Shown here: piece by piece, positions 5,728 to 23,118 of the stretch | How the letters are laid out: each line of letters starts with the position of its first letter | How positions within the stretch are numbered: the first letter of the stretch is position 1 | NCBI GenBank assembly: GCA_963702955.1 | Contig: OY969774.1 | Coordinates: forward strand, 1,113,476-1,177,475 | Length of the DNA stretch: 64,000 nucleotides | Origin: an uncultured Solirubrobacterales bacterium | GTDB lineage: Bacteria; Actinomycetota; Thermoleophilia; Solirubrobacterales; 70-9 | Direction of reading: 5' to 3' | Program-made: the position numbers and the translations under genes | Notes under the pieces: model-generated | Seen by the model: the letters and a program-made list of their open reading frames with translations, nothing else | Told to the model about the DNA's origin: nothing | Databases searched by the model: none

Positions 5728-5835
5728 TCGCCGGCAACCTAGCATAAGAGTGAGACTCGTTCTCTTTTTGTGATCGGGGAACGACTCCCCTATCGGCATG
5801 CGGAGGCGGCCCGTTCGATAGAACACAGGTTCGAG

Positions 5836-7674: not shown

Positions 7675-8598
7675 TCAGACCGGCGCGTGGGACGCTCGTT
7701 CGAGACGCTCGCGCAGTTCGTCCCCGCGGCCCGCCGCGACCGCCCGCGCGGCCCGCGCGTCGCTCAGCTCCAGATCGTGCCGCTGCGCGTAGTCCAGCAG
7801 CGCCTGGCGCTCCTCCCCCTGCTTGGCCGCTTCGAAGAACAGCCAGGCGAGCAGGCCGAGCGTCAGCAGGCTCTCCTCGACCATCATCACCACCCCGGCG
7901 ACGCTCTGGTCGCCGATCGCGGAGATGTGGTGGCGGGCGTCGCCCTGGAGGTAGTACGGGTAGAAGACGACGCCGCTCCACATGAAGACGTTGCCGAGCA
8001 CGGTGCCGAGCAGGCGGACGACCACGATGTAGATCAGTTTCGCCCCGTTGCCGAACCAGGCCGGACGCGGGAAGGGCCCGAGCAGGGCCATCCACATCGC
8101 CATCCCGAAGCCGATGAAGCTGGCGTGCTCGATCGCGTGGACGAAGTCGTTGCGGAGCGCGGCTTCGTAGAAGATCGGGATGTGCCAGGCGTAGAAGTTG
8201 ATCGCCCAGGCCGGCAGGGCGATCAGCGGGTTGGTCAGCACCCGGAGGCGGTCGATCGCCTTGATCCGCAGAAGCGGCTGCAGGATCGGCACGGTCAGCC
8301 CGAGGACGAGCAGCAGCGAGGCGATGTCGCCGAGCAGCAGGTGCTCGACCATGTGCGCGGTCAGAAGTTCGTCGCTGAGCGTCCCGACCGGCCCGCTGAG
8401 GGCCACGGCGCAGACCAGCAATCCGGCGGCGAAGCAGGCCCGCCGCCAGCCCGGCACCGGCCGCCCGGCCCTGGCCAGGGTCCGCGTGCGATGCGCGTAG
8501 GGCAGCCAGTAGGCGAGCGCGAGCAGGGGCAGCATCACGCCCTGGAGCGGGCTGTAGGCGGCGAGCGGGACCGCGGGGACGATCGTGGCCGAGCCCAT
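7675..8598 (-). CDS. Caa3_CtaG-like membrane protein, paralogue 2
   Basis: AHMVEHLLLGDIASLLLVLG and VHAIEHASFIGF motifs parallel paralogue 1. 3-nt spacer to the downstream paralogue. Confidence 0.65.
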   Translation of the reverse strand: MGSATIVPAVPLAAYSPLQGVMLPLLALAYWLPYAHRTRTLARAGRPVPGWRRACFAAGLLVCAVALSGPVGTLSDELLTAHMVEHLLLGDIASLLLVLGLTVPILQPLLRIKAIDRLRVLTNPLIALPAWAINFYAWHIPIFYEAALRNDFVHAIEHASFIGFGMAMWMALLGPFPRPAWFGNGAKLIYIVVVRLLGTVLGNVFMWSGVVFYPYYLQGDARHHISAIGDQSVAGVVMMVEESLLTLGLLAWLFFEAAKQGEERQALLDYAQRHDLELSDARAARAVAAGRGDELRERLERASHAPV

Positions 8599-8618
8599 CC
8601 GCGTCGGTCGGCGGCCGG

Positions 8619-8774
8619 CTACGCCGAGGAGGCGCGGCGGTCGCTGCCGCCGCCTCCCCGCTCGCGCCGGTTGCTGAACCAGAGCCAGATGCCGACGATC
8701 GGCACCGGGGCAAAGAAGATGAACGACGTGTACCAGTGCTTGAGACAGGCCAGAACGAGCATCGAGGGAGTCAT
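8619..8774 (-). CDS. 51-aa single-pass membrane protein (below the ORF-track size cut-off)
   Basis: ATG 8774-8772 overlaps the ycnI-like stop (ATGA); TAG at 8621-8619. MTPSMLVLACLKHWYTSFIFFAPVPIVGIWLWFSNRRERGGGGSDRRASSA. Third codon positions are almost all G/C, like the neighbouring genes. Confidence 0.55.
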   Translation of the reverse strand: MTPSMLVLACLKHWYTSFIFFAPVPIVGIWLWFSNRRERGGGGSDRRASSA

Positions 8775-9493
8775 CCTAGCGCCGTCCGCCCTCGAGTCCT
8801 GAGCAGCGCCGCGCCGCCGGCCAGCAGGCCGAGGACGCCGACGACCAGCGCCGCGATCGCCAGGCCGTCGCCGGAGCCGCCGCCCGATCCCGAGCCGCCG
8901 GACGCGGCGGCTCCGACCCCCGGCGCCTGACCGGGCGTCGGGCCGGCCTCGCCGCCGGCGACGTCCTCGATCACCCCGCCCTTGGCGGTGACGTTGATCG
9001 TCGGCGCCGGGTATTCGGCGCTCGGCGAGCCGATCCAGTGCGCCACCTTCCCGTTGCTGTAGGACTCGAGCGTCTTGAAGGCGAGCGACTTGCCGGCCAG
9101 ATCGTCGGGGATCGCGACCGAGAGCGGGAACTGGATGAAGGTGCCGTTGTCGAGGCGCCCGTCAACCGAGCGGTCTCCGGTCCAGATCACCTGCGAGACC
9201 TCTTCGTCGACCGGCCCGTCGTCGGTCTGGATCGGCTTGGCGAGCTTCTTGGTCACCTCCTTGATGCTCCAGCCGGGGACGTTCTGGGTGTCGACCGAGG
9301 TGAACCCGGGCGGCAGCAGCATGTCAACCTTGTAGGCGTAGGCGTTTTCTTCCTCGCCGGGCACGCGCACGTCGAGCGTCGCGAAGGCGCCGGCGGGAAC
9401 GGTGTCGGGGTGCAGGCTGACGTGCGCCTGGGCCGCCGCCGGAAGCAGCAGGGAGCCGGCCAGGGCGCAGAGGAATACGGTTCGCTTGAGCAT
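8771..9493 (-). CDS. YcnI-like (DUF1775) copper-binding protein with C-terminal membrane anchor
   Basis: Start MLKRTVFLCALAG with GGAGG SD 5 nt upstream. Signal cleavage AQA/HVSLHPDTVPAG leaves an N-terminal His. Gly-rich linker and a TM anchor at the C-terminus. Confidence 0.75.
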   Translation of the reverse strand: MLKRTVFLCALAGSLLLPAAAQAHVSLHPDTVPAGAFATLDVRVPGEEENAYAYKVDMLLPPGFTSVDTQNVPGWSIKEVTKKLAKPIQTDDGPVDEEVSQVIWTGDRSVDGRLDNGTFIQFPLSVAIPDDLAGKSLAFKTLESYSNGKVAHWIGSPSAEYPAPTINVTAKGGVIEDVAGGEAGPTPGQAPGVGAAASGGSGSGGGSGDGLAIAALVVGVLGLLAGGAALLRTRGRTALG

Positions 9494-9519
9494 CGAGACC
9501 TCCTGTTGGGTATGTGGAC

Positions 9520-11268
9520 TCACCGGATCGGGACCGGGATCGTCTTGGCGTACTGGTCGAAGGCGGAAACCCGGTCGGTCACCTGGATCTCCCAGGTGCC
9601 GCCGGGGCTGAGCTGGGCCGCGGTCAGCGTGTAGTGGCCGGGGCCCGAGAGGTTCGCTTTCAGCGGGATCGGCCCGATCCGCTCGGCCGGCAGCCTGGCG
9701 GTGACCGTGAGCTGCTTGGTGGCGGTGAACTGGGCGCCGTCCTTGGCGTCGATCAGGTAGAGGTGGATCGTGTTAGGCCCGGCCCGCGCCGGTTCGACCG
9801 TCATCTCCAGCTCGGCCGGGCCGAGCGTCGTGTTGATGGCGAACGGTCCCTGCGCCGCGTCGATCGGCGGCGCGTAGGAGACCAGGGCCGCGGTGACGCC
9901 GAAGACGACGAGCATCAGCGCGATCTCGCCGCGGAAGCTGCGACGGGCCTCGACCCCGGTCGTGCCCGGCGCCAGCGCCCGCTCGGCGAGGCGCCGCAGC
10001 GCCGGCAGGACCCGCTGCCGGTTGACCGCCCCGAGGCCGATCAGCGCCAGCAGCAGGGCCACCTTGGCGAGGACCAGCAGCCCGTAGGTGGTGCTGAGCA
10101 GCGCCTCGACGCTGCGCACGTCGATGTAGGCCTGGACGACGCCGGTGACCGCGATCGCCACCACCGAGGCGAGCGCGAGCGGCGAGAAGCGGGACAGGGT
10201 CGCCAGCAGCAGCCGGGTGCGGTCCTCGGGGTGGAGCCTGCGGGTCGCGGCGGGCAGCGCCAGCAGCAGGCAGGCGATGCCGCCGACCCAGACGCTCGCC
10301 GCGAGGACGTGGACGAAGTCGGTCGGGAAGAAGACGGCAACCGGGCTCTCGATGCCGGCGTGACCGGCGAAGGCCGGCGTCATCGCCAGGTAGGCCGCGC
10401 CGATCGCGATCGGGACGCTCGACGGGCGCCGCGCCCGCGGCGCCCGCCAGGCCGCCGTCAGGAGGATCCCCAGGACGATCCAGTCGGCGGCGCGCAACGC
10501 CCAGACCGTGCCGAAGCGGCTGCTCAGCGTGTCGTTGAGGATCGGGCCCTTCAGCGAGGACCAGAGCGAGACACCGGCGGCGCTGGCGCCCTGGAGGAGG
10601 ATGCCGAGGACGCTGACCGCGATCCCGAGGACGACCGCGGCCGCGAGCAGACGCCCCAGCCGGCGCCCGAACGCCCGCGAGACTTCCGACCACTCCGCCG
10701 CGCCGACGGAGGCCGCGGCGAACCCGGGGCGCCAGACGAAGACGAGGAAGGCGAGCCCGCCGATCAGCAGCGCGATCGAGAGGTAGTCGAGCATCCTGGT
10801 CGCGCCGAAGGCGAGTTTCGTCACCTCGCCGCTCTCGCCTTTGCCGATCAGGCCGGCGACCGTGTACTTCGGCGCCGCTCCGGCGTGGCCGATGCTGAAG
10901 ACGAGGCCGCCGTAGACGATGTGGGTGTCGGCCGAGATCACCCGGTAGGTCGCCGTGTAGGTGCCGTCGGGGAGGTTCGGCTTCAGCCCGACGCCCATCC
11001 AGGACTCGTGGCCGCCGGGGTGGGAGATGTCGAGGTCGTCGACCTCGGAGCCCTGGGCGTCGTAGACGCGGACCGCCCCGACGGTCCCGCCGACCGCCTG
11101 GTTGTACTTGAAGATCACCTCCTTGGGCTGCGTCTTCACGGTCGCCCCGGAGGGCGGCGAGGTGCCGACGAGCTGGGCATGGGCAAGCGCCGACGGCGCC
11201 CAGGTCAGGGCGCCGAGGAAGGCGACCAGGACGGTCGCCCCGAACGCCGTCGCGCGGCATGCGCGCAT
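9520..11268 (-). CDS. CopC-CopD fusion protein (YcnJ-like) with C-terminal Ig-like/YtkA-like domain
   Basis: Signal ALA/HAQLVGTSPPSGATV (CopC with N-terminal His), then about 8 TM helices (CopD-like) and a soluble beta-rich C-terminal domain. AAGGGGG SD before ATG 11268. Confidence 0.8.
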   Translation of the reverse strand: MRACRATAFGATVLVAFLGALTWAPSALAHAQLVGTSPPSGATVKTQPKEVIFKYNQAVGGTVGAVRVYDAQGSEVDDLDISHPGGHESWMGVGLKPNLPDGTYTATYRVISADTHIVYGGLVFSIGHAGAAPKYTVAGLIGKGESGEVTKLAFGATRMLDYLSIALLIGGLAFLVFVWRPGFAAASVGAAEWSEVSRAFGRRLGRLLAAAVVLGIAVSVLGILLQGASAAGVSLWSSLKGPILNDTLSSRFGTVWALRAADWIVLGILLTAAWRAPRARRPSSVPIAIGAAYLAMTPAFAGHAGIESPVAVFFPTDFVHVLAASVWVGGIACLLLALPAATRRLHPEDRTRLLLATLSRFSPLALASVVAIAVTGVVQAYIDVRSVEALLSTTYGLLVLAKVALLLALIGLGAVNRQRVLPALRRLAERALAPGTTGVEARRSFRGEIALMLVVFGVTAALVSYAPPIDAAQGPFAINTTLGPAELEMTVEPARAGPNTIHLYLIDAKDGAQFTATKQLTVTARLPAERIGPIPLKANLSGPGHYTLTAAQLSPGGTWEIQVTDRVSAFDQYAKTIPVPIR

Positions 11269-11313
11269 GGATGAACCCCCTTCAGTCGTCGGTCTTCGCG
11301 CGGAGAGGGCTGC

Positions 11314-11643
11314 TCAGGCGCAGCCCGCGGGCGCGGGGGGAGCGCGCCCGCCGAGCGAGAGGGCGATCAGGCGACCGCCGTGGGGCGTCCGCAGGGGCGG
11401 ACGGGCTCGGGGGACGATGACCGCCGGAGAGGGGCGCCGTCCGCGGCGCTTGACGAGGCCGGCGATCAGGTCCGCGCCCGGGTAGGGCCAGACCAGCATC
11501 GTCGCCACCAGCAGCGCCAGCGGCATCAGGTCGAGCAGGGCGTTGTCGAAGCCGCCCAGGGCGAGGACCAGCGCTCCGAGGCCGAGCAGCAGCGCCGAGA
11601 GGAGCGGAACCCTCCAGCGCCATGAGCGGCCCGGCCTGACCAT
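11314..11643 (-). CDS. small two-TM membrane protein, function unknown
   Basis: 109-aa ORF with strong GC3 bias through the first 65 or so codons. First gene of the minus-strand copper cluster. Confidence 0.45.
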   Translation of the reverse strand: MVRPGRSWRWRVPLLSALLLGLGALVLALGGFDNALLDLMPLALLVATMLVWPYPGADLIAGLVKRRGRRPSPAVIVPRARPPLRTPHGGRLIALSLGGRAPPAPAGCA

Positions 11644-11700
11644 GCGCGAAAGGATATGCCTTCGCCTCGCCGTTGGCGGCGACGGCTATCGTGTCCCGCC

Positions 11701-12414
11701 GTGGACGGCAGGCTCCCGACGAGTCGCCTCGGCCTGGCGATCGCCCTGGCGGCGGCGCTGCCGGCGCTCTCCTTCCCCGCGAGCGCGCCGGCCGGCAACC
11801 CGGACTACCGCTCGGTGATCGAGAGCGTGACGCCGAAGGTCCCGGGCGTCAGCTTCGAAGTGCTCGAATACGACAGCTACGTCGAGCTGCGCGACCGCAG
11901 CGGCCACGAAGTCGTCGTCTACGGCTACGAGCACGATCCCTACGCGCGGATCCTCAGCGACGGCACGGTCCAGGTCAACCAGCGCTCCCCCGCGACCTAC
12001 CTCAACACCAGCTTCTTCCCGACCGCCCCGGTGCCGGCCAGGGCCGATCCGAAGGCGCCGCCGGAATGGAAGACGCAGAGCCACGACGGAACCTTCGTCT
12101 GGCACGACCACCGGATGCACTACCTGACGACCGGCGTGCCGCCGCAGGTCAAGGACGCGAGCCGCAAAACCAGGATCTTCGACTACGAAATCCCGCTGCG
12201 GATCGACGGCCGCAGGGGGGCGATCCACGGCATCCTGTTCTGGGTCGGCAGTCCCGCGGCCTCGAAACTGCCGATCATCATCGCCAGCGTCGTGATCCTG
12301 CTCGGCGCCGTGGCGCTGGTGCTGGCGACCCGGCGCCGGAGGCGCGGTGGCGGCGAGGGAGGAGAGGGCGACACCCCCGACTCGCGGGAGGAGCCGGCGG
12401 GCGAAGCCTGGTAG
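11701..12414 (+). CDS. exported, C-terminally anchored protein of unknown function (WHDHRMHY motif)
   Basis: The track ORF starts at 11656, but coding-like GC3 begins at GTG 11701. Signal-like LGLAIALAAALPALSFPASA, a beta-rich body with FVWHDHRMHY, a C-terminal TM helix and an RRRRRGGGEGGEG tail. Confidence 0.6.
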   Translation: MDGRLPTSRLGLAIALAAALPALSFPASAPAGNPDYRSVIESVTPKVPGVSFEVLEYDSYVELRDRSGHEVVVYGYEHDPYARILSDGTVQVNQRSPATYLNTSFFPTAPVPARADPKAPPEWKTQSHDGTFVWHDHRMHYLTTGVPPQVKDASRKTRIFDYEIPLRIDGRRGAIHGILFWVGSPAASKLPIIIASVVILLGAVALVLATRRRRRGGGEGGEGDTPDSREEPAGEAW

Positions 12415-12426
12415 CCGCGCGGTCGA

Positions 12427-13116
12427 TCAGTCTTCGAGCAGCTTCGGCAGGTCGTGGACGATCTGGCTCGGCTGGAAGTTCTCCGGGTAGATCGTGGTCA
12501 GCTTGCCGCCGGCGTCGATCCCGTAGACCAGCGCCGAGTGGGCGACGAATTCGGGATTCGACGGTTCCGGAGTGGAGGCGACGTTCCATGCCTGCCAGAC
12601 CGGGTTCAGCTGCTTGGCGCTGCCGATCAGGTACTTCATCCTGCCGGTCATCCCGTGCACCTTGAGGAACTTGGCGACGGCTTCGTGCGTATCCCCCTTC
12701 GGATCGACGGAGACGGCGATTATCTGCATCTGCCTGCTGCGGTCGGGGCCGAGCTGGCCGAGGACGTTGTGGAGCTGGGCGGTGATCAGCGGGCAGACGT
12801 CGGGGCAGTGGGTGTAGAGGAAGGTGACGAATACCGCCTTGCCGCGGTAGCCGGCCAGGCTGACGGGTTCGCCCAGATAGTTGTGCAGGTCCCCGAACGA
12901 CGGCGCCGGCTTCTGCGGTTCCACCAGCTGCCCGTCGTAGCCGGTCACCGACCTGCTGTGGGCGTCGTTCGGGAGCGCCACCGAGGAGTGCTGGGTGACC
13001 AGCAGGGCGGTGACGCTGGCGACGATCGCCGCCACCGCCACGAGGGGGATGGCGAGGGAGACGGGCACCCCGCGGCGCTTCTCCGGGCTGTCCGGGCTCG
13101 GCTCGTCGCTCGCCAT
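12427..13116 (-). CDS. SCO1/SenC-family thioredoxin-fold copper chaperone
   Basis: Start MASDEPSPDSPEKRRGVPVSLAIPLVAV (ATG 13116). TM anchor, CxxxC motif FLYTHCPDVCPL, distal His (AHSALVYGID). Confidence 0.85.
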   Translation of the reverse strand: MASDEPSPDSPEKRRGVPVSLAIPLVAVAAIVASVTALLVTQHSSVALPNDAHSRSVTGYDGQLVEPQKPAPSFGDLHNYLGEPVSLAGYRGKAVFVTFLYTHCPDVCPLITAQLHNVLGQLGPDRSRQMQIIAVSVDPKGDTHEAVAKFLKVHGMTGRMKYLIGSAKQLNPVWQAWNVASTPEPSNPEFVAHSALVYGIDAGGKLTTIYPENFQPSQIVHDLPKLLED

Positions 13117-13280
13117 GCGGTGAAGCTTGACACGTCGGCTTAAGAGCCTCCAAAGCGCGGCGGGGAAGCGCTGGCGCAACCCGCGACCGCGTCGGCCCAC
13201 GGGATCGTCGGCCGCGCCGACCTGCCGATCCCCTCGTTGCTGTTCGCCTGGGCCGCCGCGATCGTAATGGTGATCTCCTT
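13110..13280. repeat. direct repeat copy A: decayed duplicate of the sco/membrane-gene intergenic region plus a 5' gene fragment
   Basis: 13114-13159 is identical to 18005-18050; 13160-13167 equals 18066-18073; 13168-13280 matches 18145-18257 at 111/113. It lacks the ATG and first 19 codons present in copy B. Confidence 0.9.
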
Positions 13281-13306
13281 GGTTGACGCCGCTAGCATCC
13301 GCGCCG

Positions 13307-14245
13307 GTGCGTGTCCTCGACAGCCCCGACCAAAACACGATCAGCGAGCTTTTGGCGCGCGATGAGTTCTTCTGGCTCGACCTGGAGCAGCCGAGTCCCG
13401 AAACGATCGAACTCCTGGGCGAGTTATTCCACTTTCACCCGCTGGCCCTCGAGGATTCCCAGCACTTCGGTCAGCGGCCCAAGCTCGACGACTACGACAA
13501 CCACATGTTCCTCGTCTACTACGGCGCTCGCCCCGAGGGAGGCGAGGACGACGAGATGCTGGTGGAGGTCCACGCTTTCCTCAGTGGCGGTTTCATCATC
13601 ACGCTCCACCATCGCCCCTGCGCGGAGCTGGATGAGCTGCGCGCGCGCCTCCCCCGCCAGGCTGATCGCAGCGAGCAGTTCGTCATCTACCGCGTTCTCG
13701 ACGCCCTGACCGACAGCTTCTTCCCCGCCCTGGAGGGGATCGGCATTGAGATCGAGCAGCTGGAGGCCGAGATCCTGGAAAAGCCCACCGACCAGCACCT
13801 GGAGCGGATCTTCGACCTCCGCCGCCATCTGGTCGCACTACGCCGAGTCGTCTCCCCCCAGCGCGATCTGCTGGCGCGCGCCACCGACGACATCCTCGAT
13901 CTGCCGGGCCTGGAGGCCGACAGCCGCAACTACTTTCGCGACGTCTATGACCACATGCTGCGGATCTCGGACCTGATCGACAGCTACCGGGACCTGCTCG
14001 CCAGCTCGCGGGACGCCTATCTCTCGATGGTCTCCAACCGCCTCAACTCGATCAGCAAGCAGCTGACGATCGTCGCGACGATCTTCTTGCCGCTTGCCTT
14101 CATCACCGGCTTCTTCGGCCAGAACTTCAAGTGGATGACCGATCACATCCAGTCCTTCGCCGCCTTCGCGGTCTATGGCGTCGGCGGCCTTGTGGTGTCG
14201 GCTATCGCGCTCTTCATCTGGTTTCGCCGCGGCGGCTACTTCTAG
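13307..14245 (+). CDS. corA: CorA-family divalent cation channel with GQN instead of GMN
   Basis: Typical CorA layout: acidic soluble domain, two C-terminal TM helices, LPLAFITGFFGQNFKWM loop (GQN codons 14117-14125). Start taken at GTG 13307; the track gives TTG 13283. Confidence 0.8.
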   Translation: MRVLDSPDQNTISELLARDEFFWLDLEQPSPETIELLGELFHFHPLALEDSQHFGQRPKLDDYDNHMFLVYYGARPEGGEDDEMLVEVHAFLSGGFIITLHHRPCAELDELRARLPRQADRSEQFVIYRVLDALTDSFFPALEGIGIEIEQLEAEILEKPTDQHLERIFDLRRHLVALRRVVSPQRDLLARATDDILDLPGLEADSRNYFRDVYDHMLRISDLIDSYRDLLASSRDAYLSMVSNRLNSISKQLTIVATIFLPLAFITGFFGQNFKWMTDHIQSFAAFAVYGVGGLVVSAIALFIWFRRGGYF

Positions 14246-14247
14246 CG

Positions 14248-14913
14248 ATGAGGCTGTCGCGAGCAGATCGTGAGGAGCTCGGCGTGGTCGAGCCGTTTTG
14301 GCAGGCGCAGCTCGCCGTGCTTTTCGCCCTCCTGCTTTACCTCCTGCTGCCGGGCCGGCTGACGCTCGGGCCGCGCTGGCTGCTGCCGGCCTTCGAGGGC
14401 GTACTGCTGGTGGGGCTCGCGATCTCGACTCCGTACCGCCACCACACTCAGTCGCCCGTGCGCCGACGGCTGTCGATCGGCCTGATCGCGCTGGTGACGG
14501 CCGCCAACTTCACCGCGCTGGGGCTGCTCGTCCACCTGCTGCTTGAGCGCAACACGGCCGCCGGCCGCGACCTGATCATCGCCGCCGGCCAGATCTGGCT
14601 GACGAATGTGGCGGTCTTCGCGCTCTGGTTCTGGGAGATCGACCGCGGCGGGCCGCACGTGCGAACCAAGTCCGAACAGCGGGCGCCGGATTTTCTCTTC
14701 CCGCAGATGACCGTTCCCGAGCTGCCGCTCGGAGACTGGCGCCCGGGCTTCATGGACTACCTCTACGTCGCCTTCACGAATGCCAGCGCATTCAGCCCGA
14801 CCGACGCGATGCCGTTGACCGTCCGGGTCAAGAGCCTGATGCTGGTCGAGGCAATGGCCTCGTTCCTGACGGTGGGCCTGATCGCCGCGAGGGCGGTCAA
14901 CATCCTCGGCTGA
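14248..14913 (+). CDS. DUF1345-like polytopic membrane protein
   Basis: ATG 14248 lies 3 nt after the corA stop. About 6 TM helices with a YVAFTNASAFSPTDAMPLT segment that I associate with DUF1345 (from memory). Confidence 0.5.
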   Translation: MRLSRADREELGVVEPFWQAQLAVLFALLLYLLLPGRLTLGPRWLLPAFEGVLLVGLAISTPYRHHTQSPVRRRLSIGLIALVTAANFTALGLLVHLLLERNTAAGRDLIIAAGQIWLTNVAVFALWFWEIDRGGPHVRTKSEQRAPDFLFPQMTVPELPLGDWRPGFMDYLYVAFTNASAFSPTDAMPLTVRVKSLMLVEAMASFLTVGLIAARAVNILG

Positions 14914-14917
14914 GTGC

Positions 14918-15268
14918 TTACTTGTTCCGAGCGCGCATACGGCGGCGCTCGGCGCGGCGGAAGCGAATCAGCTCGTTTGCAGCGCCCACCACGATCAGCC
15001 CGGCGATCAGGCCGAGCGCGATGCTCGGCACTCCACTCAGTACGCCCACCGCGACCACCGCGAGCGCTCCCAGGCAGCCGGCCAGGAGGATGCGAAGAAC
15101 GAAGACATCTGCCGGTGAGGCTTGGCCGCGGCGCGCACCGATCACGGCGCCGAGCGCCGCGGCGCTGCACACCACCAAGGCGGGATACGCCGCGCCTCCC
15201 ACCGTCGCGGCAAGGACACCTACGGCTGCTCCCAGGAGGACGCCGTTTCTAGTACCGGCCGAGACCAT
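14918..15268 (-). CDS. small Gly/Ala-rich membrane protein
   Basis: MVSAGTRNGVLLGAAVGVLAATVGG..., 3-4 hydrophobic helices and a basic tail. Directly downstream of the Nramp-related gene. Confidence 0.45.
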   Translation of the reverse strand: MVSAGTRNGVLLGAAVGVLAATVGGAAYPALVVCSAAALGAVIGARRGQASPADVFVLRILLAGCLGALAVVAVGVLSGVPSIALGLIAGLIVVGAANELIRFRRAERRRMRARNK

Positions 15269-15296
15269 CGCTGTTTCCCGAGCAGAGCGCCATCCG

Positions 15297-16607
15297 TCAG
15301 AAGCCAAACACCGTTACCGCGACGAGGATCAGCGACAGCGTAGACGTGGCGGCGACGGTGGCCGCGGTCAGCCCGTCGACCACTCCCCGGTTTCGGTGCT
15401 CGCCCATCAGCTCCTCGTTGCGCGCCAGGCGCCAGATGAAAAAGAGATTGATCGGCAGTAGCAGGCCGTTGACGACCTGCACTCCGACCAGCAGGGAGAT
15501 AACCGGGACTCCGGGGATCACGGCGACGATGGTGGAGATCGCGATCATCGCCGCGATCACGCCCATGAAGACGGGCGCGTCACGCAGCCGGTTGCCGATC
15601 CCCTTCTCGAATCCCAGCGACTCGGAGAGAACGTAGGAGGTGGCTATCGGGAGGATCGCCGCCGCCAGGAGGCTGGCACCGAGCAGGCCGATCCCAAACA
15701 GCAGCTCGGCGTACTTGCCCGCCAGCGGTCCCAGCGCCTTGGCGGCGTCGGCGGCGGAGCCGATCGTGTGGATGCCACCGACGTACAGAGTCGCGGCGGT
15801 GGCGATGATGATGAAGACGGCGATCAGGTTGGCGAACAGCGCGCCTGCGACGGCCTCCCTACTCTCAGCCTTCAGCTCGTCCTTGCCGGCGCCGCGCTCG
15901 ACCACGGCCGACTGGAGGTAGAGCTGCATGTAGGGGGTGATGGTCGTTCCCGCCGTGGCGACGAACAGCAGCAGGTAGGCGGAGTTGGTCTGGATCTGCG
16001 GGACGACGAGAGAGTGTCCGACTTCGCCCCAATCGGGATGGGCGAGGATCGCCGCGATCGGATAGGCGAAGAACGGGATCGTCAGCCAGATGAAGATCCG
16101 CTCTGCGGAGCGGTAGGAGCCGCGCAGGATGATCAGCCAGATACAGCCCGCGGCGATCGGGACCGAGACCTGGGCCGGGATGCCGGCCAGCCCGAGCGCC
16201 GCCCCGACGCCGACGAAGTCGGAGATGCAGATGCCCATGTTGGCGATCAGCACTGCCGTCGTGGCGAAGGCCGACCAGCGGATTCCGTAGCGCTCGCGGA
16301 TCAGCTCGGCGAGGCCCTTGCCGGTGATGACCCCCATCCGCGCCGCGGCCCGCTGGACCATGACCAGGGAGATCGTGATCAGCACCATCGCCCAGAGCAG
16401 GCTGTAGCCGTACTTGGCTCCTACCGAAGAGTAGGTGGCGACCCCGCCGGCGTCGTTGCCGGCGTTGGCGGCGATCAGGCCGGGGCCGAGCAGCCCGAGG
16501 AAGACGAGGACGCGGCTACGCCGCGAGCGCAACCGGGCAGGCAGGCGCGGCCGGCCGGCGGCAAGTGACCGGACCCGGCGTATGGCGGCTCGTACTCGGC
16601 CCGCCAT
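15297..16607 (-). CDS. Nramp/SLC11-related transporter with non-canonical metal site (NRMT-like, possible Mg2+ transporter)
   Basis: Overall Nramp/MntH-like 11-TM sequence. TM1 reads GNDAGG (16443-16457) where DPGN is expected, and TM6 reads TTITPYMQLYLQS (TPY 15930-15938) where MPHN is expected. Confidence 0.75.
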   Translation of the reverse strand: MAGRVRAAIRRVRSLAAGRPRLPARLRSRRSRVLVFLGLLGPGLIAANAGNDAGGVATYSSVGAKYGYSLLWAMVLITISLVMVQRAAARMGVITGKGLAELIRERYGIRWSAFATTAVLIANMGICISDFVGVGAALGLAGIPAQVSVPIAAGCIWLIILRGSYRSAERIFIWLTIPFFAYPIAAILAHPDWGEVGHSLVVPQIQTNSAYLLLFVATAGTTITPYMQLYLQSAVVERGAGKDELKAESREAVAGALFANLIAVFIIIATAATLYVGGIHTIGSAADAAKALGPLAGKYAELLFGIGLLGASLLAAAILPIATSYVLSESLGFEKGIGNRLRDAPVFMGVIAAMIAISTIVAVIPGVPVISLLVGVQVVNGLLLPINLFFIWRLARNEELMGEHRNRGVVDGLTAATVAATSTLSLILVAVTVFGF

Positions 16608-16668
16608 CTATCACTTCGTGTTCGTCCCAGCTCGCCATCGGCGCCGGGCAGTCTACGCCCGCGAGCGC

Positions 16669-17955
16669 CTACTCGTCGCCGAGCAGTCCGAATCTGCGCC
16701 GCCAGCCCTTGGGCAGCATCACCTCGAGCACGTCGTCAACCGTCACCACGCCGATCATCCGTTCCTCGGCATCGACAACCGGCGCCGCGATCAGGTTGTA
16801 GTCGGCCATCAGGCGGGCGACTTCCTCGAAGTCCGCCTCGGGGATCAGGTGGGGTATGTACTGGAGGTCCAACTCGGAAAGACCCGCTTCAGGATCTGAG
16901 CGAACCAGGGTCGCGAGCGGGACCGCGCCGAGGAAGTGGTGTCCCACGTCCATGACGTAGACGCTCGACAGCATCTCGGCGGCGAGCGAGCTTCGGCGCA
17001 CCCGCTCCAAAACCTCGCCGACCGTCGCCTGCCGGTAGACGCTGATGAAGTCCGGGCTCATCAAGCCACCGGCCTCGGCCGGGTCGTAGCCAAGCAGCGC
17101 CCGCACCTTGCGCTGGTGGAGCGACGGCAGCAGGTCGAGCACGATCCCCCGGCGCCCCTTCTCCAGCTCGGCGATCAGGTCGGCGGCGTCGTCAGGTGCC
17201 ATGCGCGCGACCACGGCGGCCACCTGCTCGTCGGAGCGGTGCTCGATGAACTCCATCTGGTGCTGCTCGTCCAGCTCCTCAAAAACGTCGGCTTCAAGCT
17301 CCAAGTCGTCCTGGCCGACCGCCTGGATGATCTCCTCGCCCTCGCTGTGGGAGGCGGCCTCGACCAGATCGGCGATCTGGGCGGGGTGGAGCTTGGCGAG
17401 TCTGGTGTGGAAGACGCGGAGCCGGACGGTCGGAAGGTCACCGGCAAAGGGCTCGACGCTGGCCCAGTCGAGGAACTCTCCGGTCGCGATCCTGCGCCCG
17501 AGCATCCGGGGGAGAAGGCGGCGCATCCCACCGCGCGGGCCGGTATCGACGCCGACCACGCGCCACCAGCCCTCCAGCCGCGCCAGCTCGACCTCGTTGG
17601 CTCGCACCAGGCGCGCACCCTCGACGTTGATCAACTGGTGGTCGAGAACGTCGTGCTTGAGCAGAACCTCCTCCGGACGCCTCTCAAAAGGCCGCAGATC
17701 GAGCTTCGCCTTGCTGAGCACGGCTTCTCCGGGAGCGAGGTCGGCAAGTCTGTCTGAGGGCAGATATGCCTGTCGCCCGGCCACCGTCACCAGCAGTCCC
17801 GTGATCGGCGGGTAGCCGGTCCCGCTGAGGCGCACGATCAGGTCATCGACCCGTCCAAGCCGCTGCCCATCGCTGTCACGGAGCGCTCCGCCGGTGACGA
17901 GCGAGAGGTGAAGGATCTTCGGCGCCTCGGCCAGCTCCGCAGCCATAGGCAACAT
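16669..17955 (-). CDS. soluble PRC-barrel + MgtE N-domain + CBS-pair protein (no MgtE pore domain)
   Basis: N-terminal PRC-barrel-like repeats (GQRLGRVDDLIVRL...), an MgtE_N-like acidic helical domain (AQIADLVEAASHSEGEEIIQAV...), and two CBS motifs. It ends right after CBS2 (DDVLEVMLPKGWRRRF). Start taken at ATG 17955. Confidence 0.7.
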   Translation of the reverse strand: MLPMAAELAEAPKILHLSLVTGGALRDSDGQRLGRVDDLIVRLSGTGYPPITGLLVTVAGRQAYLPSDRLADLAPGEAVLSKAKLDLRPFERRPEEVLLKHDVLDHQLINVEGARLVRANEVELARLEGWWRVVGVDTGPRGGMRRLLPRMLGRRIATGEFLDWASVEPFAGDLPTVRLRVFHTRLAKLHPAQIADLVEAASHSEGEEIIQAVGQDDLELEADVFEELDEQHQMEFIEHRSDEQVAAVVARMAPDDAADLIAELEKGRRGIVLDLLPSLHQRKVRALLGYDPAEAGGLMSPDFISVYRQATVGEVLERVRRSSLAAEMLSSVYVMDVGHHFLGAVPLATLVRSDPEAGLSELDLQYIPHLIPEADFEEVARLMADYNLIAAPVVDAEERMIGVVTVDDVLEVMLPKGWRRRFGLLGDE

Positions 17956-18000
17956 GCTAGGCGCAGCGGCTGAAGACGTGGCTAGTGGGCGTGCCCGTAC

Positions 18001-18257
18001 TCGGCATGCGGTGAAGCTTGACACGTCGGCTTAAGAGCCTCCAAAGCGCGCCGTGCGCCCGCGCGGCGGGGAATATCCTTCGCGCCGATGACGCTCAGGC
18101 TCGGCCGGCGAGCTCTCGTCCCGATCGGGCTGCTGGGGCTCGTCGCGCTGGCGCAACCCGCGACCGCGTCGGCCCACGGGATCGTCGGCCGCGCCGACCT
18201 GCCGATCCCCTCGTGGCTGTTCGCCTGGGCCGCCGCGATCGTGATGGTGATCTCCTT
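18001..18257. repeat. direct repeat copy B (intact): intergenic region plus the first 57 or so codons of the membrane gene
   Basis: See copy A. It contains a relic of the sco start codon (ATG 18007-18005) followed by a 16-codon dead-end ORF. Confidence 0.9.
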
Positions 18258-19515
18258 CGTCGCGCTCTTCCGGCTCTGGAGCGAGCCGCGCGGGCGGGCG
18301 CGGGAGAGATTGCTCCTCCACCTGCCGGCGACGCTGGAGTGGCCGCTGGGGGCGTTCGGCGTCCTCGTCTTCGCGGCGGTCGTCGTCGCGGGGCTGTGGG
18401 GCGCCCAGGACTTCACCTCGAACCTGGCGCCGACCTTCGTCTACGTCGTCCTCTGGGTGGGGGTGCCGATCGCCAGCTTCTTCGTCGGCGACCTCTTCCG
18501 GCCGTTGAACCCGTGGCGGGCGGTGGCCCGCCTGACGGCGGGGCTGCTGCGCCTGGCCGGCCGCGAGGCGCGCCCGCTGGCCGGCGCCTACCCGCCGCGG
18601 CTCGGCCGCCGGCCCGCCGCCGTCACCCTGGCTGCCTTCGCCTGGCTCGAGCTGGTCTACCCGAGCAAGGACGACCCGAGCCTGCTCGGAGCGCTGGCGC
18701 TCGTCTACGCCGCCGTCCAGCTCGCCGGCATGGCCTGCTTCGGGATCGAGGAATGGACGCGCCGCGGCGACGGCTTCTCGGTCTACTTCGGGTTCATCGC
18801 CCTGCTGGCGCCGCTGCGCTGGAGCGAGGGCCGGCTCTACCTGCGCTGGCCGCTGCTCGGCGCCCGCGAGCTCGACGTCTTGCCGGGCACCGCGGCCGTC
18901 CTCTGCGTCCTGATCGGCTCGACCAGCTTCGACGGCTTCTCCAACGGGGAGCTCTGGTACAAGATCGCGCCGCCGCTGCAGCGGTTCTTCGAGCACCTCG
19001 GCTTCACCGCGATCGGCGGCTTCGAGGCGGAGGGGACGCTGGGGCTGATCTTCTGGATCCTCTTCGTGGCCGGCATCTACAACCTCGGCATCTACGGGAT
19101 GTCGCGAGCGGTCGGCGGCGACCGGCGTCGCCTGCGAGGCGAGTTCCTGCACACGCTGCTGCCGATCGCCTTCGGCTACATGCTCGCCCACTACTTCTCG
19201 CTGCTCGTCCTGCAGGGGCAGGCGGTGACCTACCTGATCTCCGACCCGCTCGGCCAGGGAAGCGACTACTTCGGGACCTCCAACTTCCTCGTCAACTACA
19301 ACCTGATCTCCTTCGCCGCGATCTGGTACGTGCAGATCGCGGCGATCGTCGCCGGCCACGTCGGCGGCCTCGTCCTCTCACACGACCGCGGCCTGGTCTC
19401 GTTCCGCTCGCCGCGGGACTCGGTTCGTGCCCAGCACTGGATGCTGATCGTGATGGTCGGCTTCACCTGCCTCGCCCTCTGGATCCTCTCGGCGGTGACC
19501 ACGGCGACCGTCTGA
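18088..19515 (+). CDS. polytopic membrane protein, unknown function, predicted mature N-terminal His
   Basis: 475 aa. Signal MTLRLGRRALVPIGLLGLVALAQPATASA/HGIVGRADLP, then about 10 TM helices. Ancestrally divergent from sco. Confidence 0.7.
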   Translation: MTLRLGRRALVPIGLLGLVALAQPATASAHGIVGRADLPIPSWLFAWAAAIVMVISFVALFRLWSEPRGRARERLLLHLPATLEWPLGAFGVLVFAAVVVAGLWGAQDFTSNLAPTFVYVVLWVGVPIASFFVGDLFRPLNPWRAVARLTAGLLRLAGREARPLAGAYPPRLGRRPAAVTLAAFAWLELVYPSKDDPSLLGALALVYAAVQLAGMACFGIEEWTRRGDGFSVYFGFIALLAPLRWSEGRLYLRWPLLGARELDVLPGTAAVLCVLIGSTSFDGFSNGELWYKIAPPLQRFFEHLGFTAIGGFEAEGTLGLIFWILFVAGIYNLGIYGMSRAVGGDRRRLRGEFLHTLLPIAFGYMLAHYFSLLVLQGQAVTYLISDPLGQGSDYFGTSNFLVNYNLISFAAIWYVQIAAIVAGHVGGLVLSHDRGLVSFRSPRDSVRAQHWMLIVMVGFTCLALWILSAVTTATV

Positions 19516-19537
19516 CGGCGAGGAGCGAGCGATCGGA

Positions 19538-20188
19538 TCAGCGGGCCTGCCGGGTCTGCCGATCTCGCAGCTCGACCAGCGCCAGCGCCAGCGCGACCGG
19601 CACCGTAGCGGGCAGCGTGTCGACCGCGAAGAAGAGCAGGTCGAGGGCCAGGGCGAAGATCGCCACCAGCCAAGCCGCGCGCAGCTGGATGCGGCGCGAG
19701 CCGGCCAGGAGGCAGCCGAGGGTGGCGGCTACGAAGAGGTCGCCGAAGCCCATGACCGCCGCGCCGAAGTGGACCGCCTGCAGGCGCGGCAGGCCGGCCG
19801 GGGCGGCGGCGGTGAGGACGGCGTTCGGGCCCTGCAGCAGTTCGGTGGCGACGAACCAGGTGTCGACCACGGCCATCGCGTAGATCCCGAGCTTCAACCA
19901 GGCGGCGGGGGCGACGGCGACCAGCAGCCGGCCGAGGCCGACGCAGCCGAGCGCGGTCAGCGCCGTCGCCGCGGTCTCGCCGGCGAGCGAGCCGGACCCG
20001 GCCCAGGCAAGCGCGAACAGCGGCACGACGGCGAGCGCCCAGGCGGGCCGGCCGCCGCGGACCAGCCGGCCGAGTGCCAGGGCCGCGAACGGCGGCACGG
20101 CGACCAGCGCCAGCCAGGAGAGCACCGTCGCCGATTCCCCCCAGAGGGCAACGATCCCGATCACGACGACGATCGAGAGCGCCGGCAC
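19538..20188 (-). CDS. polytopic membrane protein with GxGD-like motif; start uncertain
   Basis: 216 aa from GTG 20188. The frame stays open upstream to 20365 and encodes another TM-like stretch (FAVSIAILGLLQAALVAL) with no ATG/GTG/TTG. Motifs AVVDTWF, MGFGDLF, LPATVP. Confidence 0.55.
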   Translation of the reverse strand: MPALSIVVVIGIVALWGESATVLSWLALVAVPPFAALALGRLVRGGRPAWALAVVPLFALAWAGSGSLAGETAATALTALGCVGLGRLLVAVAPAAWLKLGIYAMAVVDTWFVATELLQGPNAVLTAAAPAGLPRLQAVHFGAAVMGFGDLFVAATLGCLLAGSRRIQLRAAWLVAIFALALDLLFFAVDTLPATVPVALALALVELRDRQTRQAR

Positions 20189-20309
20189 CAGCGCCCACCA
20201 GGGGTTGCGGAAGCCGTCCAGCCAGTCGAGCCGCCGAGCCCGCGGCAGCGCAACCAGCGCCGCCTGCAGCAGGCCGAGGATCGCTATCGAGACGGCGAAG
20301 GAGGGCGAG

Positions 20310-21896
20310 CTACTCCCACTCGATCGTGGCCGGCGGCTTCGATGAGATGTCCAAAGCCACTCGATTCACGTCTCTTATCTCGTTGATGATCCGGTTGGAG
20401 ACTCGCTCCAGCAGGTCGTAGGGCAGGCGCGCCCAGTCGGCGGTCATCGCGTCGTCGGAGGTGACGGCGCGGATCACGATCGGGTAGGCGTAGGTGCGGC
20501 CGTCGCCCTGGACTCCCACCGAGCGGACGACCGGCAGCACGCAGAACGACTGCCAGAGCTGCCGGTACAGCTCGGCGGCGCGGACCTCCTCCTGCAGGAT
20601 CGCGTCGGCGGCGCGGAGGATGTCGAGCCGCTCGCGGTTGACCTCGCCGCCGACGATGCGGATCGCCAGTCCCGGCCCGGGGAAGGGCTGGCGCCAGACC
20701 ATCCGCTCCGGCAGCCCCAGCTCGGCGCCGACCGCCCGCACCTCGTCCTTGAACAGCATCCGCAGCGGCTCGACCAGCTCGAACTCGAGGTCCTCGGGCA
20801 GGCCGCCGACGTTGTGGTGGGACTTGATCGTCGCCGCGTGGTCGCTGCCGCCGGACTCGATCACGTCCGAGTAGAGCGTCCCCTGCACGAGGTAGGCGGC
20901 GTCCTCGAGCTTCGCCGCCTCCTCCTCGAAGACGCGGATGAACTCCTCGCCGATGATCTTGCGCTTGCGCTCCGGCTCGTCCTCGCCGGCCAGCCGGGCG
21001 AGGAACCGCTCCTCGGCCTCGACGTGGACCAGCGGGATGCCGAACTGCTCGAAGGCCGCGACCACCTGCTCCGCCTCGTTCAGCCGCATCAGGCCGTGGT
21101 CGACGAAGACGCAGGTCAGCTTCTCCCCCACCGCGCGGTGGACGAGCAGCGCCGCGACCGAGGAATCGACGCCGCCGGAGAGGCCGCAGATCACCCGGCC
21201 CTCGCCGACCTGGGCGCGAATCGCCTCGACCTGCTCGGCGATCACCGACTGCGGCGACCACTCCTGCTCGCAGCCGGCGATCTCACGCAGGAAGCGGGTC
21301 AGGACCTCGGTGCCGTAGGGCGTGTGGACGACCTCGGGGTGGAACTGGATGCCGTAGAGGCCGCGGTCGGGCGCCTCGCAGGCGGCGACCGGCGAGGTCG
21401 GCGTCGAGGCGAGAGCGACGAAGCCGGGCGGCGGCTCGAAGACGGTGTCGCGGTGGCTCATCCAGCAGCTCTGCTCCTCCGGCAGGCCGCCGAGCAGCTT
21501 GCCGCCGGCGTTGCGCAGGGTCAGCTCGGCCCGCCCGAACTCGCCCGACTCGGCGCCTTCGACCTTCCCCCCCAGCGCCTGCACCATCGCCTGCATCCCG
21601 TAACAGATCCCCAGCATCGGAATCCCCAAATCGAGCAGATCGGTAGGAAACGCCGGCGCCCCCGGCTCGTACACGGAAGCCGGCCCGCCCGAGAGGATCA
21701 AGCCTTTCGGCGCCCGCCCCTTGATCTCCTCAGCCGAAACCGTCGCCGGCAGCAGCTCGGCGAACACCCCACATTCCCGAATTCGCCGCGCAATGAGCTG
21801 CGAGTACTGGCCCCCGAAGTCGAGGACGAGCACCTCCTCGGAGGCCTGGGCCGGCGCCGCGGTGGCGCCGGCCTCAGTCGTCGGCGACTCCAACAC
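20310..21896 (-). CDS. guaA: GMP synthase (glutamine-hydrolysing)
   Basis: GATase domain ([26 protein letters not shown]), ATP-PPase SGGVDSS, canonical C-terminus KPPATIEWE. Confidence 0.95.
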
Positions 21897-23079
21897 CGGC
21901 GGAGACCGCCGCGCGACCGTTCGACCCCATCCCCACCGATTGCTCGTTCTGCAGCTTCTTCCCCTCGCTCTGCAGCGCCGGCGCGACCATCACCTCGGCC
22001 CGCTGGAAGGAGCGGATGTCCTCGTAGCCGGTCGTCGCCATCGAGGTTTTCAGCGCCCCCATGATGTTGAAGGTGCCGTCGTTCTCCTGAGCGGGGCCGA
22101 GCAGGATCTCCTCCATCGTCCCGTCCTGCTTGGTCGAGACCCGGGTGCCGCGCGGCAGCGAGGGGTGGAAGGTCGCCATACCCCAGTGGAAGCCGCGGCC
22201 GGGGGCCTCCTTGGCGCGGGCCAGCGGCGAGCCGACCATCACCGCGTCGGCGCCGACCGCGATCGCCTTGGAGACGTCGCCGCCGGTGCGCATGCCGCCG
22301 TCGGCGATCACGTTGACGTACTCGCCGGTCTCCAGCATGTGCTGGGCACGGGCGGCGGCGACGTCGGCGATCGCGGTCGCCTGCGGGACGCCGATCCCGA
22401 GCACGCCGCGGGTCGTGCAGGCGGCGCCGGGGCCGACCCCGACGAGGACGCCGACCGCGCCGGTCCGCATCAGGTGCAGGCCGGTCGAGTAGGAGGCGCA
22501 GCCGCCGACCACCGTCGGCACCGGGACTTCGGCGATGAACTCCTTCAGGTTGAGCGGCTCGACCGTGGTCGAGACGTGTTCGGCGGAGATCACCGTGCCC
22601 TGGATGACGAGGATGTCGATCCCGGCCTCGACCGCGATCTCGTAGTGCTCGCGCACCTTCTGCGGCGTCAACGAGCCGCAGGCGACGGCGCCGCGATCCT
22701 TGATCTCGGCCACCCGCTGCCCGATCAGCTCCGGCTTGACCGGCTCGGCGTAGATCTCCTGCATGATCCGCGTCGCCAGGTGCTTCGGCGCGGCGGCGAT
22801 CTTCTCCAGCTGCTCCTCGGCGTTCTCGAAGCGGGTCCAGATCCCCTCCAGGTTGAGCACCCCGAGGCCGCCCAGCTGGTTGACGAGGATCGCCGTCTCC
22901 GGGCTCACCACCCCGTCCATCGCCGAGGCGACGAGCGGCAGCTCGAAGCGGTACGGGCCGAGGGTCCAGCTGATGTCTATGTCGTCGGGATCGCGGGTGC
23001 GGCGCGACGGAACGATCGCGATGTCGTCGAATCCGTAAGCGCGCCTCCCCTTCTTGCCGCGACCGATGTCGATCTCCAA
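21874..23079 (-). CDS. GuaB3-type IMP dehydrogenase-related protein (no CBS insert)
   Basis: [38 protein letters not shown]... and a TIM-barrel IMPDH-like core lacking the CBS pair. Matches actinobacterial GuaB3. Confidence 0.85.
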
Positions 23080-23118
23080 ATCGATCCTCCAGAGAAGGTG
23101 GTGGCTTGAGCAGTCAGC

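Follow-up and report, generated by a model that had tools for sequence, protein, structure and literature searches.

The locus described here is the scar of a single, recent duplicative insertion, in which a cluster of predicted magnesium-transporter genes of approximately 4.7 kb came to lie within the junction between two divergently oriented genes linked to copper in a soil actinobacterium. It is found in a stretch of 64,000 nt (the window) of contig OY969774.1 (assembly GCA_963702955.1, positions 1,113,476-1,177,475), from an uncultured Solirubrobacterales bacterium (70-9). The resident genes that border the insertion are sco, which encodes a copper chaperone, and a gene for a membrane protein of 475 amino acids (aa), here called FH475. 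The duplicated segment of the sco/FH475 junction, termed J, is present on either side of the cargo, which comprises corA, a DUF1345-like gene, a gene for a small membrane protein (TM116), nrmT and an mgtE_N/CBS gene. The structure of the locus, the empty site in relatives, the composite and pre-assembled nature of the cargo and the youth of the duplication are all shown by sequence comparison. The scar is an ordinary rearrangement with cargo of a known type, and no new kind of mobile element is involved. Contigs of relatives are referred to by L-numbers throughout.

Two copies of the junction segment

The left resident gene, sco (12427-13116, minus strand), encodes a SCO1/SenC protein of 229 aa (Pfam PF02630, 85 bits), and its first 8 nt (13109-13116) fall within the duplicated segment. 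The right resident gene, FH475 (18088-19515, plus strand), encodes a polytopic membrane protein with a signal peptide; it has no match in Pfam or NCBIfam, and its family is called 'fenitrothion hydrolase' in some NCBI records. Copy B of J (18000-18260), adjoining FH475, is intact at 261 nt: a relic of the first 8 nt of sco is followed by all 80 nt of the intergenic region and, from ATG 18088, by the first 57 codons of FH475. Copy A (13109-13283), adjoining sco, is 175 nt long (261 less 15 and 71) and retains sco nt 1-8, a 46-nt intergenic core, an 8-nt block and FH475 codons 20-57. Of the two pieces missing from it, the 15 nt equivalent to 18051-18065 lie between GCGCG repeats, and the 71 nt equivalent to 18074-18144 include a candidate -10 element for FH475, ATG 18088 and codons 1-19.

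A preliminary description of this region had reported the repeat, with copy B intact and copy A lacking 15 and 71 nt, and its coordinates and block identities were all exact on recheck: 13114-13159 is identical to 18005-18050 (46/46), 13160-13167 to 18066-18073 (8/8), and 13168-13280 matches 18145-18257 at 111/113 positions, with mismatches at 13238 and 13266. The homology is slightly longer than was first noted, running from 13109 to 13162 against 18000-18053 and from 13168 to 13283 against 18145-18260, so that the identities over the full extent of the shared blocks come to 50/51, 8/8 and 111/113. The self-comparison that had been proposed as a check confirms a repeat far beyond shuffled expectation, as an exact direct repeat of up to 70 nt is found in 12000-19500, whereas none of 50 shuffles gave one longer than 15 nt; no comparable repeat occurs elsewhere in positions 1-24000 of the window.

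The reported relic of the sco start codon in copy B is likewise present. It carries one mismatch, at 18004, and its ATG at 18007 opens an open reading frame (ORF) of 16 codons (MPSTGTPTSHVFSRCA, followed by a stop). Most of this relic ORF is made up, on the minus strand, by 31 nt of unassigned origin (17969-17999), which lie between the conserved upstream stub of mgtE_N and copy B; homology on the cargo side to L090, L092 and L093 stops at 17964-17968. Copy A had been described as dead, and this holds for its FH475 stump, which has lost the ATG and codons 1-19, but not for the copy as a whole: the 46-nt core directly adjoins the start of sco, whose own 5' control region it must contain.

The empty site in relatives

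According to an earlier prediction, some related genomes should show sco and the 475-aa gene in directly divergent orientation, with a single copy of the segment and no insert. This arrangement is found in L001, L002 and L004-L006; the site is empty in all five relatives examined. The closest of these, the JGI metagenome contig L001, encodes proteins that are 94% (GuaA), 91% (FH475, as P0001), 85% (Sco) and 81% (CopCD) identical to those of the window, with sco beginning ATG GCG AGC in the window and ATG TCG AGC in L001. On this contig sco is directly divergent from the FH475 homologue, with a single J and no cargo, and collinearity with the window extends on both sides (window 7693-13055 corresponds to L001 3893-9437, and window 18144-23172 to L001 10081-11450 plus 17756-21452); both window copies of J match one and the same place. 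L002 is arranged in the same way (its 475-aa homologue is 91% identical), L003, a short contig of the L001 population, has FH475 and ends before sco, and in L004-L006 (approximately 80% identical) sco adjoins the FH475 homologue without cargo.

The single J of L001 retains the stretch just before the ATG (ATATGCTTGTGGCGCGATGACGCTC in L001, ATATCCTTCGCGCCGATGACGCTC in copy B), and because this stretch has been deleted from copy A, copy B is the ancestral form and copy A the degraded one. The L001 intergenic core has only scattered conserved blocks in common with the window copies, and is unalignable by blastn. The two copies are 98-100% identical to each other, and on these comparisons both are the recipient lineage's own sequence.

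The width of the sco/FH475 gap varies among these genomes. It is only 80 nt in the window, whereas L001 has approximately 485 nt between sco and the FH475 homologue (window 18007-18144 against L001 9515-10100), with an ORF of 107 aa, and L004-L006 have a 195-aa gene in the gap. The N-terminus of the window FH475, ATGACGCTC, is the start of the 107-aa ORF of L001, and an older deletion of approximately 400 nt probably fused the start of that ORF onto the FH475 signal peptide.

A composite cargo assembled before it arrived

The cargo forms two convergent arms, one strand carrying corA and the DUF1345-like gene and the opposite strand mgtE_N/CBS, nrmT and TM116. It is preceded by the left junction and the upstream stub of corA (13281-13306, plus strand), where homology to L087 and L089 begins at 13287 and a weaker match to the flank of L094 may begin at about 13281. 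The corA gene (13307-14245, plus strand) encodes a predicted Mg2+/Co2+ channel of 312 aa, the same length as its homologues, and matches Pfam PF01544 (243.7 bits) and, over its full length, TIGR00383 (229 bits against a curated cut-off of 200.75). The DUF1345-like membrane protein (14248-14913, plus strand) has 221 aa if started at ATG 14248, or 209 aa from GTG 14284; its assignment is weak, with 24-25 bits against Pfam PF07077, below the cut-off of 31.8 bits, and the gene is a conserved partner downstream of corA, being found at the same position in L087, L089 and L094.

On the opposite strand, the mgtE_N/CBS gene (16669-17946) encodes a predicted cytosolic protein of 425 aa with matches to Pfam PF03448 and PF00571 and homologues of 425 aa at 100% coverage. 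It lies 61 nt upstream of nrmT (15297-16607), the gene for a predicted Nramp-related magnesium transporter of 436 aa (Pfam PF01566, 301.6 bits). NrmT matches the structure of EleNRMT (PDB 7QIA) with E = 1.2e-101 (343.9 bits), compared with approximately 1e-27 for canonical MntH structures, and has the AGNDAGG and GTTI-P motifs in common with EleNRMT (PMC8806188). Downstream of nrmT, TM116 (14918-15268, minus strand, ATG 15268) encodes a small, four-helix-like membrane protein of 116 aa, with a G+C content at third codon positions (GC3) of 0.77. Its relatives number four among 1.84 billion representatives, the best being 89% identical, and a scan of JGI metagenomes found none and so yielded no longer contig with the composite. 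None of the 86 other loci, which are not composite, has a match to the 382 nt around the gene (14915-15296). Though rare, TM116 is a real gene, and it is diagnostic for the composite cluster.

Taken together, the five genes can be read from their homologies as a magnesium (possibly manganese) uptake set of known components. The annotation in the preliminary description was upheld for CorA, the Nramp protein and the MgtE_N/CBS protein, and the small membrane gene is real; the DUF1345 call falls below its cut-off. The start codons required correction, the real starts being GTG 13307 for CorA, ATG 14248 for the DUF1345-like protein, ATG 15268 for the small membrane protein and ATG 17946 for MgtE_N/CBS.

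The two arms of the cluster have separate homes elsewhere. The corA-DUF1345 unit (window 13287-14914) is 88-90% identical at the nucleotide level to L087 and L089 (corA alone is 89.9% identical to that of L089), where it lies between a RES toxin-antitoxin pair and bacA/kdp; the homology sets in 20 nt upstream of the corA start codon and extends as far as the DUF1345 stop codon. The mgtE_N-nramp pair (window 15297 to approximately 17968) is adjacent in 80/80 of the Solirubrobacterales loci recovered. In the sample that yielded L001 this pair (90% aa identity) is on another contig, L090, between unrelated genes, and L092 and L093 provide two further contexts. The L001 population has corA-DUF1345 and mgtE_N-nramp at two separate, unrelated loci.

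The joined form is found once more, on L094, a Logan contig of 3.9 kb from run SRR31557546 that is collinear with window 13289-17082 at 90-91% nucleotide identity. The collinear stretch takes in TM116 (the best, 89% identical relative mentioned above) and the 382-nt middle piece; order and orientation of the five genes are unchanged, and the contig ends inside mgtE_N. Beyond corA, L094 has 51 nt without a match to copy A or to the L087/L089 context, and a search for their identity gave only random matches of 12-14 nt. Sequence comparison therefore describes the cargo as a composite of two conserved chromosomal operons that were joined in the L094 lineage before arrival here. The earlier proposal of a transporter cassette is to be revised accordingly: the cargo is no single anonymous cassette, being composed of two conserved Solirubrobacterales operons.

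The relative age of the two events can be estimated from divergence. The copies of J differ at only 2 of 113 sites in the FH475 fragment, whereas third-position divergence between the window and L094 cargo is 17-21% (that between the window and L001 flanks is 14-25%), which indicates that the cluster was assembled first and later moved in as a unit. By this measure, and provided that the copies have not been homogenised by gene conversion, the composite is several times older than the duplication.

As to where the cluster came from, its GC3 (0.77-0.91) lies below the median of 0.934 for the 42 other genes of the window (Mann-Whitney p = 0.0015). The orthologues in the L001-type population have a GC3 of 0.94-0.98, like their neighbours, and those of L092, L093 and L094 resemble the window cargo. 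At the nucleotide level the window nramp gene is 93.0% identical to that of L094, 91.2% to L092 and 87.7% to L090, and groups with the first two; for corA-DUF1345, L094 and L089 are equidistant from the window. GC3 thus points to a foreign source and divergence levels fit either a horizontal or a vertical origin. The comparisons lean towards acquisition from a related lineage of lower GC3, with relocation within the genome as the alternative.

Two of these contigs have further features. L092, the closest mgtE_N-nramp pair with context (89% nucleotide identity), has a transposase-type helix-turn-helix gene (HTH_Tnp_1; 13185-13727) approximately 540 nt downstream of nramp, and no HTH_Tnp_1 gene lies near the window copy. 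On L088 (8547-10945) a CorA (P0146) is 95% identical to that of the window over only 76% of its length and its gene adjoins BacA ORF fragments (77 and 55 aa); the corA-bacA locus may here be recombinant or in decay.

How the cluster was joined

The preliminary description had noted the lack of an integrase, transposase or tRNA, and the searches agree: no integrase or transposase domain was found in a Pfam scan of the cargo and flanking ORFs, and no tRNA or tmRNA in the window. The cargo ends have no terminal inverted repeats. A CTAGCAT shared by both ends was considered as a pair of inverted repeats and rejected, being only 7 nt long and occupying the -10 position in relatives with unrelated flanks.

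For the joining step we infer, at about an even chance of being right, a one-step and element-independent illegitimate insertion that duplicated its target in place, with breakpoints 261 bp apart. The pre-assembled five-gene cluster would have been joined into the divergent sco/FH475 junction in an event that copied 261 bp of recipient DNA, namely the first 8 nt of sco, the intergenic control region of 80 nt and the first 57 codons of FH475. This could have happened if the cargo was end-joined between breaks in two sister chromatids, or if a replication template switched to the cargo and then back to a position 261 bp behind, as in microhomology-mediated break-induced replication (MMBIR). During or after the event copy A lost its 15 and 71 nt, which silenced the redundant FH475 stump. 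The right joint has a possible 4-nt microhomology, CTCG, because the mismatch at 18004 puts the boundary of perfect identity at 18005. Such a route is favoured since both copies of J are the recipient's own sequence while the cargo differs from it in composition.

Several points weigh against this reading. There is no clear microhomology at the left joint, and the joining mechanism leaves no unique testable signature; the evidence for it is circumstantial. L094 ends within mgtE_N and the source beyond the right end of the cargo is therefore out of view. The survey for a second cargo copy covers 64 kb, a span in which copy-and-paste is not separable from cut-and-paste or horizontal transfer. 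No genome of the same species was found (the best FH475 match is 91%), and hence no polymorphism between empty and occupied sites was seen. The age of the duplication could be underestimated if gene conversion has acted between the copies, the GC3 shift of the cargo is moderate, with a few resident genes as low (minimum 0.826), and the promoter assignments discussed below draw on hexamer position and conservation alone.

The preliminary description had interpreted the locus as a Campbell integration, in which a circle carrying the cargo and a 261-bp J recombines with the chromosomal J by one RecA-dependent crossover. Direct repeats of a homologous segment around an insert are the exact product of such a crossover, the absence of element genes is what integration by host RecA would leave, and the composition of the cargo fits an external origin. 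The crossover could have taken place within the identical 46-nt core, which has the differences on either side of it; this distribution fits any model, because the outer halves belong to the native genes. The circle would, however, need a J of recipient type (98-100% identical), when the intergenic J of even the closest relative cannot be aligned by blastn, and both ends of that J would need to have been ligated to compositionally different cargo, which calls for the same two illegitimate joints as the one-step insertion and then for an extra crossover. L094, the only other carrier of the composite, has no J beside corA. The cargo contains no replication, partition or transfer gene, and a search for a vehicle among plasmids, phages and IMG/VR gave only weak single-gene matches at 66-73% and no plasmid, phage or viral contig carrying the cargo. 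A target of 261 bp is short for a crossover, though still workable. Given the recipient-type copies of J and the deviant GC3 of the cargo, Campbell integration is one of several possible routes and not the most economical; we consider it possible but rather unlikely. More doubtful still is a large tandem duplication running from the junction to a cargo copy further along the chromosome, which would make the 17999/18000 joint, followed by a deletion from FH475 codon 57 to the cargo start, which would make the joint at approximately 13280-13287. Duplication followed by differential loss would produce the pattern of another block move in this neighbourhood, in which, relative to L001, the Fur-ABC-ZnuA-LGT genes have changed place in the same orientation, VKOR/DsbA are missing and FH475 abuts the gene for p216. 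Third-position divergence of the cargo from its orthologues in the L001 population (20-29%) is also near that of the flanks (14-25%), as vertical descent would allow. Yet this route takes two rare events at the least, after which the original cargo copy either stayed or disappeared in a third; a second copy is not seen in the window, within 46 kb downstream or 13 kb upstream, which is one reason for preferring the one-step insertion; there are no scars around the other relocated block; and the GC3 of the cargo is below that of both the resident genes and the L001-population orthologues.

That the occupied site is ancestral, and the empty site of L001 a precise deletion by recombination between the repeats, is largely refuted and carries very little probability. 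Recombination between direct repeats of 175-261 bp would indeed excise the cargo and leave a single J like that of L001, and mgtE_N-nramp adjoins copper genes elsewhere (Sco in L007, YcnI in L049 and a cupredoxin in L093). Against this, the repeats differ by less than 2%, when the window and L001 differ by 14-25% at third positions; the context of corA-DUF1345 in L087 and L089 is a different one, conserved between the two; both units of the cargo lie at other loci in the L001-type population; and L004-L006 are empty as well. An assembly artefact, whether a chimeric join or a repeat-induced misassembly, is equally remote. The exact FH475 protein has no record in the public collection, which would be in keeping with such an error, but the copies are distinguishable by two indels and three substitutions and so are not the same reads used twice. 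Assemblers collapse repeats and do not create them, both novel joints leave intact genes in a sensible arrangement, and the composite cargo is independently confirmed on L094.

Expression and consequences of the insertion

Candidate promoters for the cargo lie within the cargo itself. A TAGCAT hexamer at 13293-13298 is 8 nt before the corA start (GTG 13307), and another at 17952-17957 (minus strand) is 7 nt before the mgtE_N ATG and is conserved in L008, L022, L026, L090 and L093. The hexamer stands 7-8 nt before the corA and mgtE_N starts also in relatives with unrelated upstream DNA, and there are only four TAGCAT in the window. These hexamers are plausible -10 elements of leaderless genes that would have travelled with the cargo. 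A third CTAGCAT, at 5740-5745, is found approximately 24 nt before the LGT ORF; the recurrence suggests that CTAGCAT is a common -10 form and that leaderless transcripts are frequent in this organism. A scan with the sigma-70 consensus gave no promoter and a terminator scan gave one weak terminator-like site. An Rfam scan of 11000-21000 for M-box or Mn riboswitches had no match at E <= 1.

For the resident genes, TATCCT (a TANNNT-type hexamer, 18075-18080), 7 nt before the FH475 ATG, is the -10 candidate that was lost from copy A in the 71-nt deletion. On the sco strand the 46-nt core holds TGTCAAGCT (TGCCAAGCT in L001), 7 nt before the sco ATG, and this sequence is likely to be sco's own leaderless-type promoter. 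Copy A leaves sco with its 5' region in place, and copy B does the same for FH475. In copy B, the sco promoter that is now redundant would face the 16-codon relic ORF and then mgtE_N-nrmT-TM116, and may add sco-like regulation to that operon. The idea that copy A supplies an FH475 promoter to corA was rejected: the probable -10 and the ATG went with the 71-nt deletion, and corA has a TAGCAT of its own.

The copper locus around the insertion

The neighbourhood differs from that of L001 in other ways. A block of Fur, ABC-3, ABC_tran, ZnuA and LGT genes lies at 1797-6624 in the window, upstream of the CtaG-YcnI-CopCD-sco cluster, and in L001 (12774-17659) it lies downstream of the FH475 homologue (FH483) in the same orientation; no flanking duplication scars were found around the window block. 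The VKOR and DsbA-like genes of L001 (11512-12755) have no counterpart in the window, where FH475 ends 22 nt from the gene for p216. A second Caa3_CtaG paralogue (6811-7671, minus strand) is situated beside the first (7675-8598), with no copy at this position in L001; its best DNA match, at 77%, is the second CtaG of L004/L006, and it looks like another lineage-specific gain in the copper locus.

The p216 gene (19538-20188, minus strand), just beyond FH475, encodes a polytopic membrane protein of 216 aa with no match in Pfam or NCBIfam. It has a GFGD motif (AVMGFGDLFVAA) and an upstream AVVDTW, motifs that recall the GxGD intramembrane aspartyl proteases. In about two dozen more distant Solirubrobacteraceae loci, a p216 homologue is the divergent upstream neighbour of mgtE_N-nramp. 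The latter pair is also found directly downstream of a copper gene on three contigs, namely Sco in L007 (8107-11308), YcnI/DUF1775 in L049 (7992-11233) and a cupredoxin in L093 (9524-12641), and in the window it follows the duplicated candidate promoter of sco. It is a speculative and rather improbable suggestion that the mgtE_N-nrmT module has been repeatedly re-sited next to copper-handling genes in Solirubrobacterales. Were it true, there might be a functional link between the transporter and copper-protein maturation, and element-free insertion with target duplication would allow new operons to enter a bidirectional control region while both residents stay in working order.

Significance and relation to known systems

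The locus is a well-resolved natural case of bacterial gene order changing in the absence of mobile elements. It displays both breakpoints, and relatives supply the empty site, the separate loci at which its parts lay ancestrally and a second, independent example of the cargo in pre-assembled form. Duplication of the target lets an insertion land in a compact divergent promoter region while both residents keep their 5' ends. The locus also serves as a caution, because flanking direct repeats without an integrase do not automatically signify Campbell integration or a new mobile element. Its interest is limited in that the genes are of known kinds and no long-standing question is opened.

Campbell integration, as known from suicide plasmids and episomes, resembles the present case in its direct repeats, a few hundred bp long, of a homologous chromosomal segment and in needing no element recombinase. 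The differences are that no circular vehicle, replicon gene or plasmid relative is found here, that the repeats are of recipient type and the cargo is compositionally different, and that L094 has no J on its visible side. Transposons, insertion sequences and miniature inverted-repeat transposable elements differ in that here there are neither terminal inverted repeats nor a transposase, and the duplication is 261 bp, compared with a typical 2-15 bp. The locus has the compositional deviation of an integrase-type genomic island (a moderate GC3 shift), and neither a recombinase nor a tRNA or att site.

In Escherichia coli, e14 and phage 21 integrate into icd by means of a site-specific integrase and an attP that includes a gene fragment, and thereby provide a replacement gene end. 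The likeness lies in long repeats of a coding gene, a target gene that stays functional and a gene stump on the other side; the unlikeness is that there is no integrase, tRNA or phage gene here, and that the repeats are near-identical, with no diverged copy borne by the element. Integrative elements that carry a replacement end of the target gene have been reviewed (PMC6379469).

Template-switch rearrangements are described by the model of fork stalling and template switching (FoSTeS) and MMBIR (PMC2621351), and stress-induced rearrangements are known from E. coli (PMC3161906). They are alike in that one event inserts a distant segment and re-copies the original template, giving an insertion with flanking duplication, non-recurrent breakpoints and small errors near the joints; the window differs in that microhomology is doubtful, with the possible CTCG on the right and none evident on the left. 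To our knowledge, template-switch events have not been described as a route of gene relocation in Actinomycetota.

The cargo itself is comparable to characterised transporter operons. EleNRMT is a characterised Mg2+/Mn2+ transporter (PMC8806188), and most members of the NrmT branch are preceded by a gene for a homologue of the MgtE cytoplasmic domain, and one member without a riboswitch is reported to transport mainly Mn2+ (PMC4072509). The window transporter appears by sequence to be of the NRMT type, closer to EleNRMT than to MntH, and is likewise preceded by a gene for an MgtE-domain homologue. It differs from these operons in having no M-box riboswitch, which is present in many members although not all, and in being joined with corA-DUF1345 and the gene for a rare small membrane protein into one convergent cluster.

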